A DNA stretch of 35,423 nt from contig CAZHRF010000034.1 of NCBI GenBank assembly GCA_964534625.1, positions 1 to 35,423 of the forward strand, read 5' to 3'. Position numbers and translations under genes: made by a program. Below the pieces are notes generated by a model that was not told the origin of the DNA, ran no database searches, and saw only the letters and a program-made list of their open reading frames with translations. The first letter of the stretch is position 1; each line of letters begins with the position of its first letter. Positions 3,405 through 12,615 of this stretch are shown one piece after another. The DNA is from an uncultured archaeon. GTDB taxonomy: Archaea > Asgardarchaeota > Heimdallarchaeia > Heimdallarchaeales > Heimdallarchaeaceae.

Positions 3405-5384
3405 TTATTTCCACAACATTTTGTATATTTTTCTACCTAGGTTTTCGTGAATGATTGTTACAATGGGGCAATATTCAAAACATCTATGACAATGTGAGCA
3501 TTTTTCTTTGTCTATAATTAGTTGATTTTCCTTTTTGTCTATTATTATTGCTTGAGTTGGGCAGCTTTCAACACATAAACCACAAGAAGTACATTCCATA
3601 GATCTAAATACTGTAATTAAGAATGTAATGAGAATATTAGTAATCCTTGATTGATCAACAGTAGTATTTATTTCTATTTTGAAAGTTCCAGATATATGAA
3701 TAGTTATGATGTAATCATGTGTTTTAAATGTCAAGTGGTGATTGGTTAATTCCTGTATCTCTTGAATTTTTTCTATAATTGTAAGAGATGATTTAATTTT
3801 TGTTAAATCTAGTACTTTTGATAATTCTCCTGTTATAATTCTCTTTTCATTTTTTTCTTTTATAAACTGTAAAGATATCAAATCAAATTTTTTCTTAAGG
3901 AGTTTTTCTTTTTCTTCTTTTGATAAAGGTACAACATTCAAAATTTTTTTTGGAACATCTTTAAATCGCCATAATCCTTTTTCCCAATAAAAATTGGGAA
4001 AGTAGTTCTCTTTTCCCCATTCTTTTACTTTATTTTTTAATTTTATATAATATTTAGGATGATTGTTCTTTAACAACTCTAAATGAGCTATATCTGATGA
4101 AGGACATAACCAGCATCCTATTCTTTCATAACCTCTATCGTATAATTCTAAATAAGGCAAGTTTTTCCAGTATATATATAACCATATCATATAGGCGTTC
4201 CAATCTTGAATTGGTGATGCATTAATTTGTTCTGGAATATAAGGATTGGTCCAAATATCTTTTGATGCTCTTATATATGATTCATATCTTCGTTGTCCAA
4301 CAAAACTCAAACACTTTCCTTCATCTGAATATAATTTAGTTATTATTTTTTTAATTGGAGCTAGTTTGGCTAATTTGCAACAATATCGATAATCTCTTCC
4401 TGGAGGACCAAATTTATCGAATGATCTCCAAAATATTTCTGGTGAGACTTTTTCCATTATCAACTGTTTTTCCATACCTAACTTATTTATAGATGTTTTT
4501 ACATGTTTGACTGTTTCTGGAAACTCAAGACCTGTATCAACAAAAACAATTGGGAATTTGATGTTTGGAAAAGCTTGTTTCACTAAAAATAAAGTTACTA
4601 GGCTGTCTTTACCACCGCTATAGCTGACAAAAAAAGGTAAATCTATTTCAGAAACCGTGTTTCTAATGTAACTAATTGCTTTTGCTTCTAAATCCTCAAG
4701 TAAATCAACATTTGCTTTTATAATTTCATCCCAACTGTTTTTTGTATATTTAGGGGGAGTCTTCAATGTAACTGATTGATAATTTTTTGCATAAACACCT
4801 TTATTTTTTTTCTTTCTTATTATATCATCTTTTCGTGCAATTCCCCCTGCAATAACTTCTTTTTTTGTATTTAAAATAACTATATAATCTCCCTTTTTTA
4901 TTGTTTCATCTGCATCTAATATACCTGGAATTAAAACATTAGCTCCCTCTTGGATTTTCTTTCCTCCTATTTTATCCACCTTTACCCATTTTCTTGAGAT
5001 ATTTTTGTTCTCTAACATCTTCAAGCCATATTCATTTAATTTGATTATCCATTTATCTTGTTTCAAATCATATCTTTTTGTTCCTATACTATTACCAAAA
5101 TATATGATTTCATCCATTCTATCTTCTGATCCAACATTGTTAATTAGAATTATATCATCAAGAAAAATAAACTTTCTAACACCAAAATTATTGAAGACTA
5201 ATTTTTGGATTTCTTTGATATCATAGGGAGTTGCGGGTCGAGCATCATATGGGGGAGTTATTCGCATTTTTTCTGTAAATTTACCACAAATAGGACATTT
5301 TGTAACTTTTATTAATGGGATTGAACAATCGTAGCAAAAGAAAAATAGATTGGGCCCTAACCAGGGTATTTTTCCACTAGGCAT
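3405..5384 (-). CDS. PAPS-reductase-family protein with N-terminal Zn ribbon, PUA domain and C-terminal 2x[4Fe-4S] domain
   Basis: CYDC...CPIC; PUA-like GANVLIPGILDADETIKKGD; PP-loop SYSGGKDS; RYCC and RIGCWLCP; CTSCGLCVESCP and CSHCHRCFEYCP. Confidence 0.9.
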   Translation of the reverse strand: MPSGKIPWLGPNLFFFCYDCSIPLIKVTKCPICGKFTEKMRITPPYDARPATPYDIKEIQKLVFNNFGVRKFIFLDDIILINNVGSEDRMDEIIYFGNSIGTKRYDLKQDKWIIKLNEYGLKMLENKNISRKWVKVDKIGGKKIQEGANVLIPGILDADETIKKGDYIVILNTKKEVIAGGIARKDDIIRKKKNKGVYAKNYQSVTLKTPPKYTKNSWDEIIKANVDLLEDLEAKAISYIRNTVSEIDLPFFVSYSGGKDSLVTLFLVKQAFPNIKFPIVFVDTGLEFPETVKHVKTSINKLGMEKQLIMEKVSPEIFWRSFDKFGPPGRDYRYCCKLAKLAPIKKIITKLYSDEGKCLSFVGQRRYESYIRASKDIWTNPYIPEQINASPIQDWNAYMIWLYIYWKNLPYLELYDRGYERIGCWLCPSSDIAHLELLKNNHPKYYIKLKNKVKEWGKENYFPNFYWEKGLWRFKDVPKKILNVVPLSKEEKEKLLKKKFDLISLQFIKEKNEKRIITGELSKVLDLTKIKSSLTIIEKIQEIQELTNHHLTFKTHDYIITIHISGTFKIEINTTVDQSRITNILITFLITVFRSMECTSCGLCVESCPTQAIIIDKKENQLIIDKEKCSHCHRCFEYCPIVTIIHENLGRKIYKMLWK

Positions 5385-5405: not shown

Positions 5406-6440
5406 TTATGTTTCCCTAAGTAATCTCATAAGAATTCGTGGTATTTGCTTGTAATGAGTTACCTCAGCATATTTTCCTCTTCCTAGTCTTGCAAGGTCCT
5501 TACATACACGTTTTCCCCACGCATGCTTTGAAGGCAAAGCAATCACGTGTAATTTTGGAAACCTTTTTAAGAAAGGTCGGGGATCTCCTCCTCTGTTAAA
5601 TGCACCGTCAGTCACTAAGACGCCAAATTTATTTCTCTTCTTTATTTTTTCTATTTCAATTCCTCCGTATTTCAAAGCTTCACTAATATTAGTATATCCC
5701 GCACTGTCACTTTCTAAAATTCGATTTACAAGTTCTTCTGCTCTAATTTTTTCATTTATGTGTTTTATTATTCTTGCTTTTGTATTAAATAGTATAACAC
5801 TAAAATTGTCTTTTGAAAGGTTATACGCTAAAATAGACACAGTTAATGCCGCTGTAGTGAAACGTTCCCCAAAAAGTGAACCTGATGTATCAAACATTAA
5901 AACCGCTGTTTTTAATCTATCTTTCCTTTCGATGCTAACTATATCTTCTTTTTTTAATGTTCTACTCCTATTTTGAAGATATCTCTCCAATGTCTCTTCA
6001 ATGTCAAAGTCATCTAAACCCGGTTGATATTCTGTATGTTCTAATATTTCTCCTCTTAATCCTTGTCCCGTCATACCAAAAGCAGTTGATAAAATGACTT
6101 GTCTTGCTAATCGTCGAAATACTGGTTTTGTTTTTTCATCTAAAGCGGATCTTAGTAAGAAAAATAATTCTGGTGCTGCACTATCACCTTTAGATGCTCT
6201 TCGAGATAAAAGAGTATATCCCTCTTTTGAACTTAATACTTCTGCAACAGCAAATTTGTTTGAAAGTGCAAGTCCTTGTATAGCTGGCATATTATCTACA
6301 TCAACAGCTAGTTCTGTTTGCTTCTTTATTTCATAATAGTTCATACCCTCGGAGAGGTTTGCATAAAATGAGGATTTCCTTTTTCCAGACACTATTTCAG
6401 CTTCAAGCAATTTGTCTTTATTCATCCGACCTCTGAACAC
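5406..6440 (-). CDS. von Willebrand factor A (VWA) domain protein, MoxR partner; possibly made as a -1 frameshift fusion with the upstream ATPase
   Basis: MIDAS DTSGS, GYTNISEAL, VTDG; the frame stays open upstream to 6506, overlapping the MoxR stop. Confidence 0.9.
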   Translation of the reverse strand: MFRGRMNKDKLLEAEIVSGKRKSSFYANLSEGMNYYEIKKQTELAVDVDNMPAIQGLALSNKFAVAEVLSSKEGYTLLSRRASKGDSAAPELFFLLRSALDEKTKPVFRRLARQVILSTAFGMTGQGLRGEILEHTEYQPGLDDFDIEETLERYLQNRSRTLKKEDIVSIERKDRLKTAVLMFDTSGSLFGERFTTAALTVSILAYNLSKDNFSVILFNTKARIIKHINEKIRAEELVNRILESDSAGYTNISEALKYGGIEIEKIKKRNKFGVLVTDGAFNRGGDPRPFLKRFPKLHVIALPSKHAWGKRVCKDLARLGRGKYAEVTHYKQIPRILMRLLRET

Positions 6441-6487
6441 ATAAGGTTTTTTGAACTCTGAATCAAATTGCTCACCTCTCCAGTCTT

Positions 6488-6497
6488 CTAGAAAAAA
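6488..6497 (-). other. candidate -1 ribosomal slippery site U_UUU_UUC followed by UAG
   Basis: Minus strand GAT TTT TTC TAG; the -1 frame CTA GAA GAC TGG... joins the VWA ORF (6491-6440 = 51 nt = 17 codons, no stop). Confidence 0.65.
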
Positions 6498-7384
6498 TCC
6501 GTATCTTCAAGCACCTTTGTAACAATTTCTTGAATAATATCTTCGACTTGATTTTCGACTCCATCTTCTAATTCTATTTTAGTTGCTAAAGCCATAATTG
6601 CACTATCAATCCACGATTGAATATCATTCACATCAAGGAACTGAATAATTGATGCTTGATCTATAGCACCTCGAATAGATGAACCTCTACGCAAATCGGG
6701 CCAATCTCTGGTAGCACGAACAATTTTTACTGCCATACTAATCATTTTTTCATCCTTAATTCCTGTTCTTACCTTAACGATGTTTTCCTCTTCTTCTTGA
6801 GGTTGGTAATCTAAACGAATCCAAACAAATCTATCCCTTAATGCTTCACTTAATGGTGTAGTTGCAATTAATTCTGCGGGGTTCATCGCACTTATGATAA
6901 AGAAACCGTCATTAGCTATAACTTCACCTAATTTTGGTATAATAATTGTACCTTCATCCATAGCTCCAAGTAAAACATTTTGTGTTCCTTCTGGCATTCT
7001 ATTTAGCTCATTTAAGAATAATATTGAACCTTGTTGCATTGATTTTGTTAAAGGTCCTGTAAAGAATGATTCCCATGTATATCCTTTGTCTATTACTAAA
7101 GGTGGATCAAAATGCCCTACTAATTTAGCAGCACTATACCTTTCGTCTCCATCTACTCTCTCTATTTCTTGTGAGAAGTACTTTGCAATTCCATTAGCTA
7201 AGGTTGTTTTACCAACACCTACGTCACCCTCGAGTAAAATATGTCTTCCTGCTAATTTGGCTGCCAAACATTTTCTTAACTCTGTTTTTCTTCCAACGAT
7301 GTTATATTTTTGTTGAATATCCTCTATCATTTCATTAATTGATTTATCTTCTTGTGTCAAACTTTTTGCAGGCATTATTTTCAC
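6488..7384 (-). CDS. MoxR-family AAA+ ATPase
   Basis: HILLEGDVGVGKT Walker A, LFLNELNR Walker B variant, SAMNP sensor, LSEALRDRF, GSSIRG. Confidence 0.93.
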   Translation of the reverse strand: MKIMPAKSLTQEDKSINEMIEDIQQKYNIVGRKTELRKCLAAKLAGRHILLEGDVGVGKTTLANGIAKYFSQEIERVDGDERYSAAKLVGHFDPPLVIDKGYTWESFFTGPLTKSMQQGSILFLNELNRMPEGTQNVLLGAMDEGTIIIPKLGEVIANDGFFIISAMNPAELIATTPLSEALRDRFVWIRLDYQPQEEEENIVKVRTGIKDEKMISMAVKIVRATRDWPDLRRGSSIRGAIDQASIIQFLDVNDIQSWIDSAIMALATKIELEDGVENQVEDIIQEIVTKVLEDTDFF

Positions 7385-7703
7385 CTAATTCTTACTTTCT
7401 CTTAAATAATAAATTATATCTTTACTGTATAAATACTTTCAGATAATTCAAATAAGATAATATAATCTTGAACAACCTTTGTTAGATGTTTTATAATCTT
7501 TTAGATATTTGATAAGTGTAAAAAATACAACTCATTTGATGCATTCAGTGTGTTTTGTGTTCATAAAAGGAACAGTGTTAGAGGTCAATAAAATTCTAAA
7601 ATGCCATTAAATAGTACTCGTAAATAGTGAAATATCTTAAGTAATGTGTGAAAATATTATATGGTATGCATTTTTGTAATATTTTAGTGATACCTTCTTT
7701 TTT

Positions 7704-8312: not shown

Positions 8313-8391
8313 AGGTGAACCAATTTATACCTTAAAATAAATATATCTTATCATTAAGACTTTGGTGATTATTATTACTCGTAATGAAAAA

Positions 8392-11300
8392 ATGTCTGTT
8401 GTCATTAAAGATTATTTCAGTAGTATTAGTGAGGAAATAAACGACATATATAAAATTGCTGAAAAAGCGCGAAAACAGGGTTTAGATCCCGTTTTAACTG
8501 TAGAAATTCCTATTGCAAAAGATATAGCTGATAGAGTTGAAGGTCTAATTGGTCCTCCTGGAGTGGGCGAACGAATTCGTTTTTGGGAAATGAAAGGATA
8601 TTCAAGAGAGGAGGTGGCATTTAAAATTGCTGAAGAAATTAGTAAAGGAAAACTAGTTGATGGAGGAATGGAAGAATTGGCTGGACAAGCAATTAGAAGT
8701 GCTTTGGCCATAATAACCGAAAGTATAACAGCAGCTCCATTAGAAGGCATAGCCAAAGTCAAAATCAGAAAAAATTTCGATAATAGTCAATATCTTGCGG
8801 TATACTATGCGGGCCCTATTAGATCTGCGGGTGGAACAGCAGCAGGTATGAGTGTATTGATTGCAGATTATGTTCGTAGAACAATGGATTTAGACAGATA
8901 TATGCCAACAGACCGGGAGATTGAACGCTATATTGAAGAAATAAATCTGTATAATCGTGTCATGAATTTACAATTACCAACAACCAAAGAAGAATTAAGG
9001 TTTGCAGCTGGAAATTTAACAGTAGAGATAACTGGAGAACCAACAAATTCAGAAGAAGTATCAGGAAATAGAGATCTAAAAAGAGTTGAAACAAATAGAA
9101 TTCGTGGTGGTGCTTGTTTAGTATTTAATGATGGCTTAGTAGGTAGAGCAAAAAAAATCCACAAAAGGGTTTTAAAACACAACTTAAGGGGATGGGGATG
9201 GTTAAAAGAATTAATAAAGATTCACGAAACCGTTGCCATTCAAGATATTTCAGAGTCTGACAAGATCGAACCAGAAAAGAATACATCATATATAAAACCA
9301 GATACTGGGTATATTCAAGATGTAATAGCGGGCAGACCTGTTTTTGCTCATCCTTCGGTAAAAGGGGGTTTCCGATTAAGATATGGTAGATCACGTGCAA
9401 CTGGTTTAGCCGGTTTAGGAATTCATCCTGCATTAATGGGTTTAACTTACGACTTCCTAGCTTGTGGAACCCACATTCGAACTGAAAGACCGGGAAAGGG
9501 ATCAATTGTCATGCCCGTGGATTCAATTCATCCACCAATTGTGCGATTAAAGAATGGTGATGTAATTAAGGTAGAAAGTTATGAACAAGCTTGTAAAATT
9601 CGAGACAATGTAGACAGTATTTTGTTTGTTGGAGATATGCTGTTTGGTGTTGGTGAGTATAATCAGAATAATTATAATCTTGTTCCGTCTGGATATTGTG
9701 AGGAATGGTGGGTTCAAGAATTAGAAGAACGGGTATTTGACTTATCTGATGACTTAAAACAAAGTTTATTTGATAAACTTGGGAATAAATTAAATAAATT
9801 CATCATAAAACCGTTTGATATTTTCCCAGACGGAAAAGAATCAATTGTTTTAGCACGTATTCTGAATATTCCCATTCATCCAAAATATACATATCATTGG
9901 AATGATATTTCTATTAACGAGTTAATTAAATTACGTGATTATTTCAGTAACCATTATAGTGAAACTGCTATTAAAAACCATTCATTCCCATATTCTAAAG
10001 ATATAAAAGAGATTTTAGAAAAATTATATGTACCACATACTATAAGAAAAAAATCAATAAAATTGAATGAACATTTTGATTCATTAATTGTTTCAATGGC
10101 TATTGGTGATAAAAATGATATTAAAGTTGAGAATTATAACTCGACACTCGAGTTAGTTAATAAGTTAAGTAAAACAATTATTCGTGATAAGTGTCCTGTC
10201 TATACTGGAGCTAGGATGGGAAGACCAGAGAAAGCTAAAGCAAGACGTATGCGACCACCTGTTCATCTCTTATTCCCCATTGAAGGGTCTGGTGGTCGTT
10301 TAAGAGATTTAAACCAATCTAGTAAAAAAGACAATGTTAAAGTAGAATTATTTCAAACAAAATGTCCAAAATGTGGAAAAAAGGTGCATGGTTGTTTTTG
10401 TTCTGAATGTCAAATACCCACGAAAGAATTGTATTTTTGCAAGTGGTGTAAAGTTGAAGTCTCTGGAGAACTATGTCCCAATTGTAATCGTAAATCAGTT
10501 CAATACCTAAAAATAAGTTTTCCAATGAAGACCGAGATTGAAAAAGCAAGAAAAAAAATAGGTGGTCTTCTGCCTAATAAAATAAAAGCTGTAAAAAAAC
10601 TAATGAATGAAAAGAAGATACCTGAATTAATAGAAAAAGGGATTTTGAGAGCAAAATATGATGTTTATGTTTATAGAGACGGAACAGCAAGATTTGATGC
10701 CACTGATGCTGCTTTAACGCATTTTAAACCAGAAGAAATAGACGCATCAATTCACCAGTTGAAACAATTGGGTTATTTCGTTGATATACATGGAAAACCT
10801 TTACTAAAAGAGGATCAAATGTTAGAATTAAAACCTCAAGATATTATTATAAATAGTAATGGTGGCATATATCTAAAAAAAGTCGCTAATTATATTGATG
10901 ATCTGTTAGAAGGTGTATATGGATTACCACGTTTTTATAATGCACAAACTGTTCATGATTTGATAGGGCACATTGTGATTGGATTGGCTCCTCATACCTC
11001 TGCTGGAATAGCTGGGAGGTTAATAGGATTTACAAAAGCCAAGGTGATTTTTGCTCATCCTTACTGGCACGCAGCAAAGCGGCGTAATTGTTTAAGTGGA
11101 GAGGAGAAAATAAAAATATGGGATACAGAGAAAAAACAATTATTTACTAAAGCGTTAGGTGATATTGTAAATGATATTCTAAAAAAAGGGACGAATGCAA
11201 AAATTGTAGATGAGTATGGAACTTTAGAAATTGAAAATATATATTCACACTGGAGAACCATTAGTATAGATCCTGATACTCATGAAGTAATATTTCAACC

Positions 11301-12615
11301 GATCAAAAGTTGGATAAAAGGAAAAAGTAAGGATTGGATTACTATCTTAACAAAGACGGGACAAAAGATTAAGATGACCCCCAGTCATAATATGCTTGTC
11401 TGGGATCTGGATATTAACGAACTAGTCAAAAGAAAAGCTTGGCAATTAAAGAAACATGATAAAATTCCGATTATATCGAATATTGGTGTTTATGACAAAA
11501 AAATGACATCTAAAACAAATATTCTAAGAGATTTTGATCTAGAATTTTTACCTTATTCAGGAGTTGTAAATCAAAAGAAGAAAACTAATGCAAAATCTAT
11601 TTTGAAAGCTGGTTATTATAGAAAAAAGAAAATAAGTGTTCCAGATGGGTCATCTTTCATGCCTAAAAAAAAGGAAACAATCATCTTTGATGAAGTAGTT
11701 AAAATTGATTTTGTGGAAGATTTTGCTGATTCATATTGTCTTGAAGTTGATACGATAAAGGAAATGTCATTATACCATAATTTTTCTCTAACAACAGTGT
11801 TAACAATGAATTGTGATGGTGATGAAGATTCCATAATTTTGGCACTTGACGCATTTCTGAATTTTTCCAAATCTTTTTTACCCTCTATGCGTGGAGGTAT
11901 GATGGACGCTCCACTTGTTCTTGTGTCTACCCTTAATCCTTATGAAGTTGATGATGAATCTCATAATGTTGACACTAGTTTTTCTTATCCTCTTTCTTTC
12001 TACAATGCTTCATTAAAACGTGAATCTCCCAAGAATGTTCTTCCTTTGATTGATATTGTCAGTAATCGTTTAAATACTGAAAGTGCATATGAAGGATTTG
12101 GCTATTCTCATGAAACATCTATGTTATTTCAAGGTCCTTCAAGTACTGATTATAAAAAATTGAATACCATGCATGAAAAAGTTGATGTACAATTAAAAAT
12201 TGCAAAAAAAATAGCTTCAGTCAATGCCGATGATGTTGCTTCAAGAGTAATTGTTAATCATTTCATCCCTGATTTAATAGGGAATTTAAGAAGATACGCA
12301 GGACAAAAGATACGTTGTACAAATTGTAATACTACTTATCGCCGTATCCCTCTATCTGGGATTTGCCATACGTGCAAATCGGATAAATTAAATTTGACAG
12401 TATATGAGAAATCAGTAACTAAATATCTGTCTATGGTTGATGATATCGCTGAAAAATATAATCTGTCTGAATATCTCTTAAATCGTATTTCTTTAATCAA
12501 GCATAATCTCTCTGTACTTTTTGGTAAATCTTCATTAGATCCAAATAATGATGAAATAGATATACCCGACAGTCAAGTAAATCTTGGTGATTTCTTTGTA
12601 TCTTCAAAAAAATAA
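8392..12615 (+). CDS. polC: DNA polymerase D large subunit DP2, intein-containing (ATG at 8392 preferred over TTG at 8362)
   Basis: AGPIRSAGGTA, GGFRLRYGRSR, GARMGRPEKA, HAAKRRN|CDGDED catalytic motif, C-terminal CTNC...CHTC Zn finger. Confidence 0.98.
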   Translation: MSVVIKDYFSSISEEINDIYKIAEKARKQGLDPVLTVEIPIAKDIADRVEGLIGPPGVGERIRFWEMKGYSREEVAFKIAEEISKGKLVDGGMEELAGQAIRSALAIITESITAAPLEGIAKVKIRKNFDNSQYLAVYYAGPIRSAGGTAAGMSVLIADYVRRTMDLDRYMPTDREIERYIEEINLYNRVMNLQLPTTKEELRFAAGNLTVEITGEPTNSEEVSGNRDLKRVETNRIRGGACLVFNDGLVGRAKKIHKRVLKHNLRGWGWLKELIKIHETVAIQDISESDKIEPEKNTSYIKPDTGYIQDVIAGRPVFAHPSVKGGFRLRYGRSRATGLAGLGIHPALMGLTYDFLACGTHIRTERPGKGSIVMPVDSIHPPIVRLKNGDVIKVESYEQACKIRDNVDSILFVGDMLFGVGEYNQNNYNLVPSGYCEEWWVQELEERVFDLSDDLKQSLFDKLGNKLNKFIIKPFDIFPDGKESIVLARILNIPIHPKYTYHWNDISINELIKLRDYFSNHYSETAIKNHSFPYSKDIKEILEKLYVPHTIRKKSIKLNEHFDSLIVSMAIGDKNDIKVENYNSTLELVNKLSKTIIRDKCPVYTGARMGRPEKAKARRMRPPVHLLFPIEGSGGRLRDLNQSSKKDNVKVELFQTKCPKCGKKVHGCFCSECQIPTKELYFCKWCKVEVSGELCPNCNRKSVQYLKISFPMKTEIEKARKKIGGLLPNKIKAVKKLMNEKKIPELIEKGILRAKYDVYVYRDGTARFDATDAALTHFKPEEIDASIHQLKQLGYFVDIHGKPLLKEDQMLELKPQDIIINSNGGIYLKKVANYIDDLLEGVYGLPRFYNAQTVHDLIGHIVIGLAPHTSAGIAGRLIGFTKAKVIFAHPYWHAAKRRNCLSGEEKIKIWDTEKKQLFTKALGDIVNDILKKGTNAKIVDEYGTLEIENIYSHWRTISIDPDTHEVIFQPIKSWIKGKSKDWITILTKTGQKIKMTPSHNMLVWDLDINELVKRKAWQLKKHDKIPIISNIGVYDKKMTSKTNILRDFDLEFLPYSGVVNQKKKTNAKSILKAGYYRKKKISVPDGSSFMPKKKETIIFDEVVKIDFVEDFADSYCLEVDTIKEMSLYHNFSLTTVLTMNCDGDEDSIILALDAFLNFSKSFLPSMRGGMMDAPLVLVSTLNPYEVDDESHNVDTSFSYPLSFYNASLKRESPKNVLPLIDIVSNRLNTESAYEGFGYSHETSMLFQGPSSTDYKKLNTMHEKVDVQLKIAKKIASVNADDVASRVIVNHFIPDLIGNLRRYAGQKIRCTNCNTTYRRIPLSGICHTCKSDKLNLTVYEKSVTKYLSMVDDIAEKYNLSEYLLNRISLIKHNLSVLFGKSSLDPNNDEIDIPDSQVNLGDFFVSSKK
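11089..11811 (+). mobile_element. mini-intein (241 aa) in DP2, no recognisable homing endonuclease
   Basis: Interrupts RRN|CDGDED; begins CLSGEEKI, block B TPSH, block F-like YCLEV, ends LTMN before the +1 Cys. Confidence 0.93.

Follow-up and report, generated by a model that had tools for sequence, protein, structure and literature searches.

A MoxR-type AAA+ ATPase gene of Asgard archaea probably joined to its VWA partner by programmed -1 frameshifting

The window, a 35,423-nucleotide stretch of DNA from an uncultured archaeon of the Heimdallarchaeaceae (contig CAZHRF010000034.1 of assembly GCA_964534625.1), carries on its minus strand an ORF for a MoxR-type AAA+ ATPase that terminates on a run of Us just inside a second long ORF, which encodes a VWA domain in another frame. 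This arrangement raises the question of whether these ORFs are two adjacent genes or a single gene that is read in two frames. We favor the latter, with a probability of about 0.82: a recoded gene in which programmed -1 ribosomal frameshifting would yield the ATPase on its own as well as a fusion of ATPase and VWA domain. The features on which the argument turns are as follows.

7381..7386, minus strand: AGGTGA, a Shine-Dalgarno-like motif 5 nt before ATG 7375 that contains GTG 7384 (sequence, with its role inferred)
6488..7375, minus strand: MoxR-type AAA+ ATPase ORF, zero-frame product, 295 aa from ATG 7375 (Pfam, NCBIfam)
7205..7228, minus strand: Walker A motif GDVGVGKT; G50, G53, G55, K56 and T57 are invariant in the ATPase alignment
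7007..7012, minus strand: Walker B motif with NE instead of DE; N122 and E123 are invariant in the ATPase alignment
6507..6509, minus strand: TGA that shuts the -1 frame upstream (sequence)
5406..6506, minus strand: -1 frame ORF with a helical middle domain and a C-terminal VWA domain (Pfam, structure model)
6494..6500, minus strand: G_GAU_UUU, the phylum-wide register of the putative shift site, N_NNU_UUY (97 distinct -1 junctions)
6491..6497, minus strand: U_UUU_UUC, slippery heptamer of the form X_XXY_YYZ (U_UUU_UUN in 22/22 junctions of the window's family)
6488..6490, minus strand: UAG stop directly behind the putative shift site (sequence)
6426..6491, minus strand: -1 frame linker, L E D W R ... 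V F R G R, which would be translated only after the shift
6433..6483, minus strand: weak imperfect hairpin (MFE fold)
6440..6438, minus strand: GTG in the VWA frame (sequence)
6423..6425, minus strand: first in-frame AUG of the VWA frame, a possible internal start under a rival reading (sequence)
5877..5891, minus strand: MIDAS motif DTSGS (VWA alignment)

The ATPase ORF ends GAA GAT ACG GAT TTT TTC TAG (minus strand, 6509-6488), and the VWA frame stands in a -1 relation to it with a 19-nt overlap. The -1 frame is open from 6506 to 5406, or 366 codons, and 17 of its codons (L E D W R ... K K P Y) run into GTG 6440. As the TGA at 6509-6507 closes this frame upstream, any shift must fall within the final 19 nt of this ORF, where two overlapping in-frame slippery heptamers, U_UUU_UUC and G_GAU_UUU, are found; slippage in either register would give one and the same junction peptide, ...EDTDFF-LEDWR. 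The heptamer, the 17-codon join, the closing TGA and the overlap of ~19 nt had all been claimed in a preliminary description of this locus, and each is borne out by the sequence, so that the slippery heptamer and the VWA-frame layout are confirmed as a real feature. Among 2033 stop-to-stop ORFs of 200 or more codons in this genome, four end in U_UUU_UUN, and 10 combine a slippery heptamer near the stop with a long -1 frame. Only three of these 10 have no start codon nearby, two of which are the genome's two MoxR-VWA pairs. In the second pair (L266:1-3500, 39% identity, junction at 976) the frames are likewise in -1 relation; its A_AAA_AAA precedes the stop by one codon, and there is no start nearby.

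Both halves of the locus have the hallmarks of MoxR AAA+/VWA systems, namely an AAA_5/AAA_3 ATPase with Walker A and B motifs (Pfam scores of 76.7 bits for AAA_5 and 55.7 bits for AAA_3) and an adjacent VWA domain in the -1 frame (Pfam VWA, 36.1 bits) with an intact MIDAS, whose residues D200, S202, S204 and D294 are invariant and T266 nearly invariant in the VWA alignment. The variant Walker B signature NE recurs wherever the motif was matched, in 96 orthologs and in 117 natural fusions. Three more distant MoxR paralogs of this genome have DE at this position, as opposed to the NE of the clade, fused or split. The best NCBIfam matches of the ATPase are GvpN (70.7 bits) and MadB (69.7 bits), both far under their cut-offs; in tests for membership in the named subfamilies GvpN, MadB and CobS all scores lie below the curated cut-offs, and the ATPase-VWA combination is a MoxR/VWA clade without a name. 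NorQ and CbbQ are among the solved sequences nearest to the ATPase. A structure model of the -1 ORF (pLDDT 85) places a helical domain and then the VWA fold behind a stretch of about 19 residues that is predicted to be disordered (pLDDT <50 for linker residues 1-19), and its best fold matches are to NorD of the NorQD complexes. As to the start of translation, GTG 7384 lies inside the Shine-Dalgarno-like AGGTGA (7386-7381), which makes AUG 7375 the likelier start. The predicted products are accordingly more likely to be of 295 aa (short) and 656 aa (fusion) than of the ~298 and ~659 aa initially proposed.

The preliminary description had also proposed comparing orthologous junctions for phase and slippery site, and both turn out to be conserved well beyond the window's family. 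A phylum-wide search recovered the ATPase from 151 of 251 genomes. Within the class 48/54 loci are in -1 phase and 6/54 in +1, with frame 0 seen in none; across the phylum 17 Asgard families contribute 97 distinct -1 junctions, and 96 of these junctions have an in-frame N_NNU_UUY, although related genomes share ancestry, so that these loci do not count as independent trials. The stop follows 0-1 codons after the A-site UUY in 97/100 of the -1 loci. In the window's own family, G_GAU_UUU is present in 19/22 distinct junctions and U_UUU_UUN in 22/22. Across the phylum the variants of the site (G_GGU_UUU, A_AAU_UUU, C_CCU_UUU and U_UUU_UUA) remain slippery. Paralogs at ~40% identity, including one in this genome, are also in -1 phase, with A_AAA_AAA or A_AAA_AAY as their sites. 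A Promethearchaeum MAG (L246) shares the -1 layout, which extends to other archaea and to bacteria, where the site is often A_AAA_AAA or C_CCA_AAA and is accompanied by a GC-rich hairpin. The bacterial split homologs in -1 phase come from Spirochaetota, Actinomycetota and Deltaproteobacteria, and their A_AAA_AAA or C_CCA_AAA sites are mostly followed by such a hairpin.

Three lineages are in +1 phase at UUU_UUU_CGN, with all four CGN codons observed: a family of the class with 6 genomes, a second family, and 2/7 genomes of the Njordarchaeum family. UUU_CGN is the known +1 motif of influenza PA-X and of the amalgaviruses (PMC5052127). The genes of the other 5/7 Njordarchaeum-family genomes are in-frame fusions of ~700 aa that keep UUU_UUU_CGN and have a +1 stop 2-10 codons later; CGN makes up 41% of the Arg codons in these genes. 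These fusions suggest a frameshift of reversed polarity, as in dnaX, in which the shifted product would be the short one. Mapped onto a tree of 85 ATPase domains, the +1 state requires 4 changes, the fused state 8.

If the frames are joined during translation, the stretch between the site and the VWA-frame AUG should behave as coding sequence, and linker-peptide conservation and naturally fused orthologs had both been put forward as things to look for. Every indel in this stretch is a multiple of 3, so that the linker changes length by whole codons. Over the last eight codons ahead of the AUG, variation in the -1 frame is about three times as high at third positions (2.71) as at first and second positions (0.90 and 1.05). 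A search for longer relatives yielded 197 proteins, those listed being about 540-710 aa long and nearly all of AAA+VWA type. The predicted 656-aa fusion aligns over residues 6-654, linker included, with collinear natural fusions of 647-655 aa at 46-48% identity. By these signs of indel length, third-position bias and alignment to fusions, the trans-frame linker evolves as protein. Most plain natural fusions have a linker without a slip site, and reverse slip sites are mostly absent from the plain fusions outside the Njordarchaeum family. A close short copy was not found in 4/5 genomes with plain in-frame fusions, which suggests either that the short form is not universally required or that these assemblies are incomplete; one genome with a plain fusion had a second, -1 copy.

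These observations bear on a first alternative, that of two ordinary coupled genes in which the VWA protein is made only from AUG 6425 or GUG 6440 and no fusion is produced. In MoxR/VWA pairs such as NorQ/NorD each protein normally has a gene of its own (PMC13036017), the AUG is kept in all members of the window's family with a GAGG upstream of it, and the model is folded from just behind this Met onward, for which reason some free VWA protein may be made too. As a complete account, we regard this alternative as improbable, if slightly less so than the other two considered below: 12/54 orthologs have L, I, Y or F in place of the VWA-frame Met, 5 of the linkers are without any start codon, the codons ahead of the AUG show protein-like evolution, and the GAGG encodes a conserved Arg-Gly motif that is also present inside the natural fusions. 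It further leaves the fixed phase, the slippery site and the +1 switch to UUU_CGN unexplained.

One mark of programmed -1 frameshifting is a stimulatory structure 3' of the site at a spacing of 5-9 nt, and the preliminary description had pointed to an imperfect hairpin 7 nt downstream of the heptamer. This hairpin does appear in the MFE fold, with CUGGA (6483-6479) starting 7 nt past the heptamer and pairing with UUCAG (6437-6433), but it is weak (-13.9 kcal/mol, z -1.95, 8/200 shuffles as good; z -1.1 in a slightly longer window of folding) and is not conserved in the family: RNAalifold found no consensus stem 3' of the site among 19 members, and the mean z of the downstream fold is -0.63, against -2.41 in the Hodarchaeales-type family, which has a plain hairpin. 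We therefore reject it as a conserved stimulator in the window's family.

Other families have a clear hairpin or a kink-turn downstream. A kink-turn consensus, defined as GA exactly 8 nt after N_NNU_UUY, a C-stem, an RAU bulge and GA, is matched by 34/96 junctions from 10 other families as against 39/28695 control positions (0.14%), and 31/34 of these junctions are without a perfect U_UUU_UUN site. When pairing is not required, the first four C-stem positions nonetheless pair in 37, 36, 34 and 36 of 38 cases, with exchange between G-C and A-U. The bases of the kink-turn also encode acidic residues, so that selection on the protein may contribute to the consensus. The full consensus occurs in 0/22 junctions of the window's family; in the window the GA at +8 (6485-6484) is present and the 3'-side RAU-GA is absent, and by this comparison its kink-turn is degenerate. 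Three further observations concern such elements elsewhere. One genome of the same order has two close ortholog copies, both in -1 phase with A_AAU_UUU and the kink-turn consensus. In loci of Promethearchaeum type (L150-L152) the kink-turn-like GA stands at +11 instead of +8, and the outer stem is AAGGC/GCCUU. In a large Loki-type family AAUC GAU GA ... GA GAUU past the site may, by eye, be a kink-turn with a bulge in the 5' strand, or could instead reflect conservation of the protein (IDDFS).

Archaeal L7Ae binds kink-turns in mRNAs (PMC5539422), and genes of the L7Ae family are present. This raises the tentative possibility, which we consider doubtful at present, of an ancestral phylum-wide cassette, in which an imperfect heptamer was boosted by an L7Ae-bound kink-turn 8 nt downstream and the ratio of ATPase to fusion tracked free L7Ae. 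Different lineages would then have swapped this signal, for a perfect U-run with a plain hairpin or none (as in the window), for +1 shifting at UUU_CGN, or for an in-frame fusion shifting to the short form, while keeping the two products.

The same data are relevant to a second alternative, in which RNA polymerase slips on T6 and adds one U, so that standard translation gives the same fusion. T6-T8 runs are found in the window's family and in the Hodarchaeales-type loci (46/100 loci), the window's family is without a conserved downstream structure, and dnaX uses either route in different bacteria (PMC5009743). In the remaining 54/100 loci the T-run is of 5 or fewer and too short, which makes polymerase slippage unlikely in general, if less so for the T6 of the window; the described bacterial cases occur on runs of 9 (PMC5009743). 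Neither the retention of the shift sites in codon register, nor the constant distance at which other families have their kink-turn or hairpin, nor the CGN retained after the run in the +1 lineages would be expected from slippage of the polymerase, and we give this alternative a low probability, marginally below that of coupled genes.

An assembly error, or a recent pseudogene of a plain fusion gene, might be suspected from the homopolymer at the site and the in-frame fusions of relatives, but is refuted by the conservation of the same break in ~100 loci, including complete chromosomes; the motifs kept in both halves and the contigs of four runs, which are gap-free, also speak against it. The check for an assembly indel that had been called for thus revealed none in these contigs, among them one of a ~96% identical strain from a second, independent study that spans the junction without a gap; two of the contig matches (X1, X4) may be the window's own source, and contigs are blind to rare variants of the U-run. 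The DNA of the window occurs in microbial-mat metagenomes.

Conserved phase, site, coding linker and collinear natural fusions are established by comparison across genomes, and from them we infer that the shift is ribosomal. Under programmed -1 frameshifting one mRNA would give rise to two N-terminally identical proteins. Most ribosomes probably terminate at the UAG and release the 295-aa MoxR-type AAA+ subunit, while some would slip back one base on the U-run, at U_UUU_UUC and/or G_GAU_UUU, and go on to make a 656-aa protein of AAA+, linker, helical and VWA domains. The stop directly behind the site may help where structure is weak. G_GAU_UUU is the -1 site of pea enation mosaic virus, where the stop lies 3 nt behind and matters (PMC5009743). 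By analogy with NorQD, CobST and ChlID, the short subunits would assemble together with the long one as a ring, whose one tethered VWA/MIDAS domain would engage the pore and a client in the manner of the finger-in-pore arrangement of NorQD/CobST. A minority fusion might, as initially proposed, set the stoichiometry of the hexamer. A chaperone role on such a client would fit this picture.

The closest precedent is the frameshifted chlD, from which a short AAA+ and a long AAA+-VWA protein are made from one gene (PMC3711429; PMC9227772; PMC5009743); among published cases of AAA+/VWA recoding of this design we found only these chelatase genes. There too the shift lies at the end of the AAA+ domain, -1 is commoner than +1 and natural fusions exist. 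The present clade differs in its MoxR/GvpN-like AAA+ domain (AAA_5) with a Walker B NE, in having U-rich sites rather than A_AAA_AAR, and in the kink-turn consensus of many relatives. An identity as ChlD is rejected and a chelatase role is not supported: chelatase models score far below their cut-offs (BchD-ChlD, 20.4 bits vs 499.55; Cob-chelat-sub, 20.4 vs 779.45), the natural fusions reach 28-56 bits, and CobN/ChlH (PF02514) was not found in this genome, which is 90% complete, though some hosts of published frameshifted chlD genes are also without this chelatase large subunit ('stage 1').

Further comparisons place the locus among better-known systems. The MoxR/VWA pairs NorQ/NorD (PMC13036017), CbbQ/CbbO, CobS/CobT (bioRxiv 10.64898/2026.10.09.757910), CoxD/CoxE and RavA/ViaA likewise combine an AAA_5-type ATPase with a VWA/MIDAS partner, but as separate genes, whereas here recoding is predicted to tie the VWA domain covalently to the AAA+ domain. 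The dnaX tau/gamma system (PMC5009743) is also a component of an AAA+ ring that has long and short forms and is known in both polarities; it is an unrelated, bacterial protein with an A_AAA_AAG site accompanied by a Shine-Dalgarno sequence and a stem-loop. The UUU_CGN of PA-X and amalgaviruses (PMC5052127) and the G_GAU_UUU of pea enation mosaic virus (PMC5009743) are identical to the motifs found here, but are read by eukaryotic ribosomes, while the present genes are chromosomal and archaeal. Proven chromosomal frameshifting in archaea is limited to very few cases, one being the alpha-L-fucosidase gene fucA1 of Sulfolobus (PMC8211752), also a -1 shift; it is strain-restricted and repairs one enzyme, as opposed to the phylum-wide distribution here, where both products look functional. 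Searches of the open literature turned up neither a MoxR-VWA or Asgard frameshift nor a kink-turn described as a frameshift stimulator, though a chlD gene set of 2020 may partly overlap with the present genes, in its examples lacking a large subunit.

The layout persists in the majority of the Asgard families searched and is also present in other archaea and in some bacteria. It would thereby carry the plan of chlD, in which a single gene supplies AAA+ and AAA+-VWA, over to a MoxR clade. The natural variants of the signal, comprising -1 sites with a kink-turn, a plain hairpin or little structure, the +1 UUU_CGN and the in-frame fusion, offer material for testing how frame is shifted by the archaeal ribosomes closest to those of eukaryotes. 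Under this reading, current annotation wrongly splits genes of this type into two ORFs and assigns the VWA part a false start.

The surroundings of the locus name no client. Conservation of the PRK13795-type gene downstream, which follows the VWA ORF at all loci of the window's family, and of polC upstream does not go beyond that family, and a conserved client among the neighbors was rejected as no neighbor is conserved phylum-wide. Matches to an internal promoter or terminator are at chance level. The downstream gene (window 3405-5384), which encodes a PRK13795-like protein with PUA, PAPS-reductase and 4Fe-4S domains, begins 21 nt after the VWA stop, and the DNA polymerase D large subunit at window 8362-12615 contains an intein (PF14890 match). 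Elsewhere in this genome an ORF for a NosD/beta-helix protein (L265:349-1811) has A_AAA_AAG near its stop, followed by a -1 frame of 238 codons without a nearby start.
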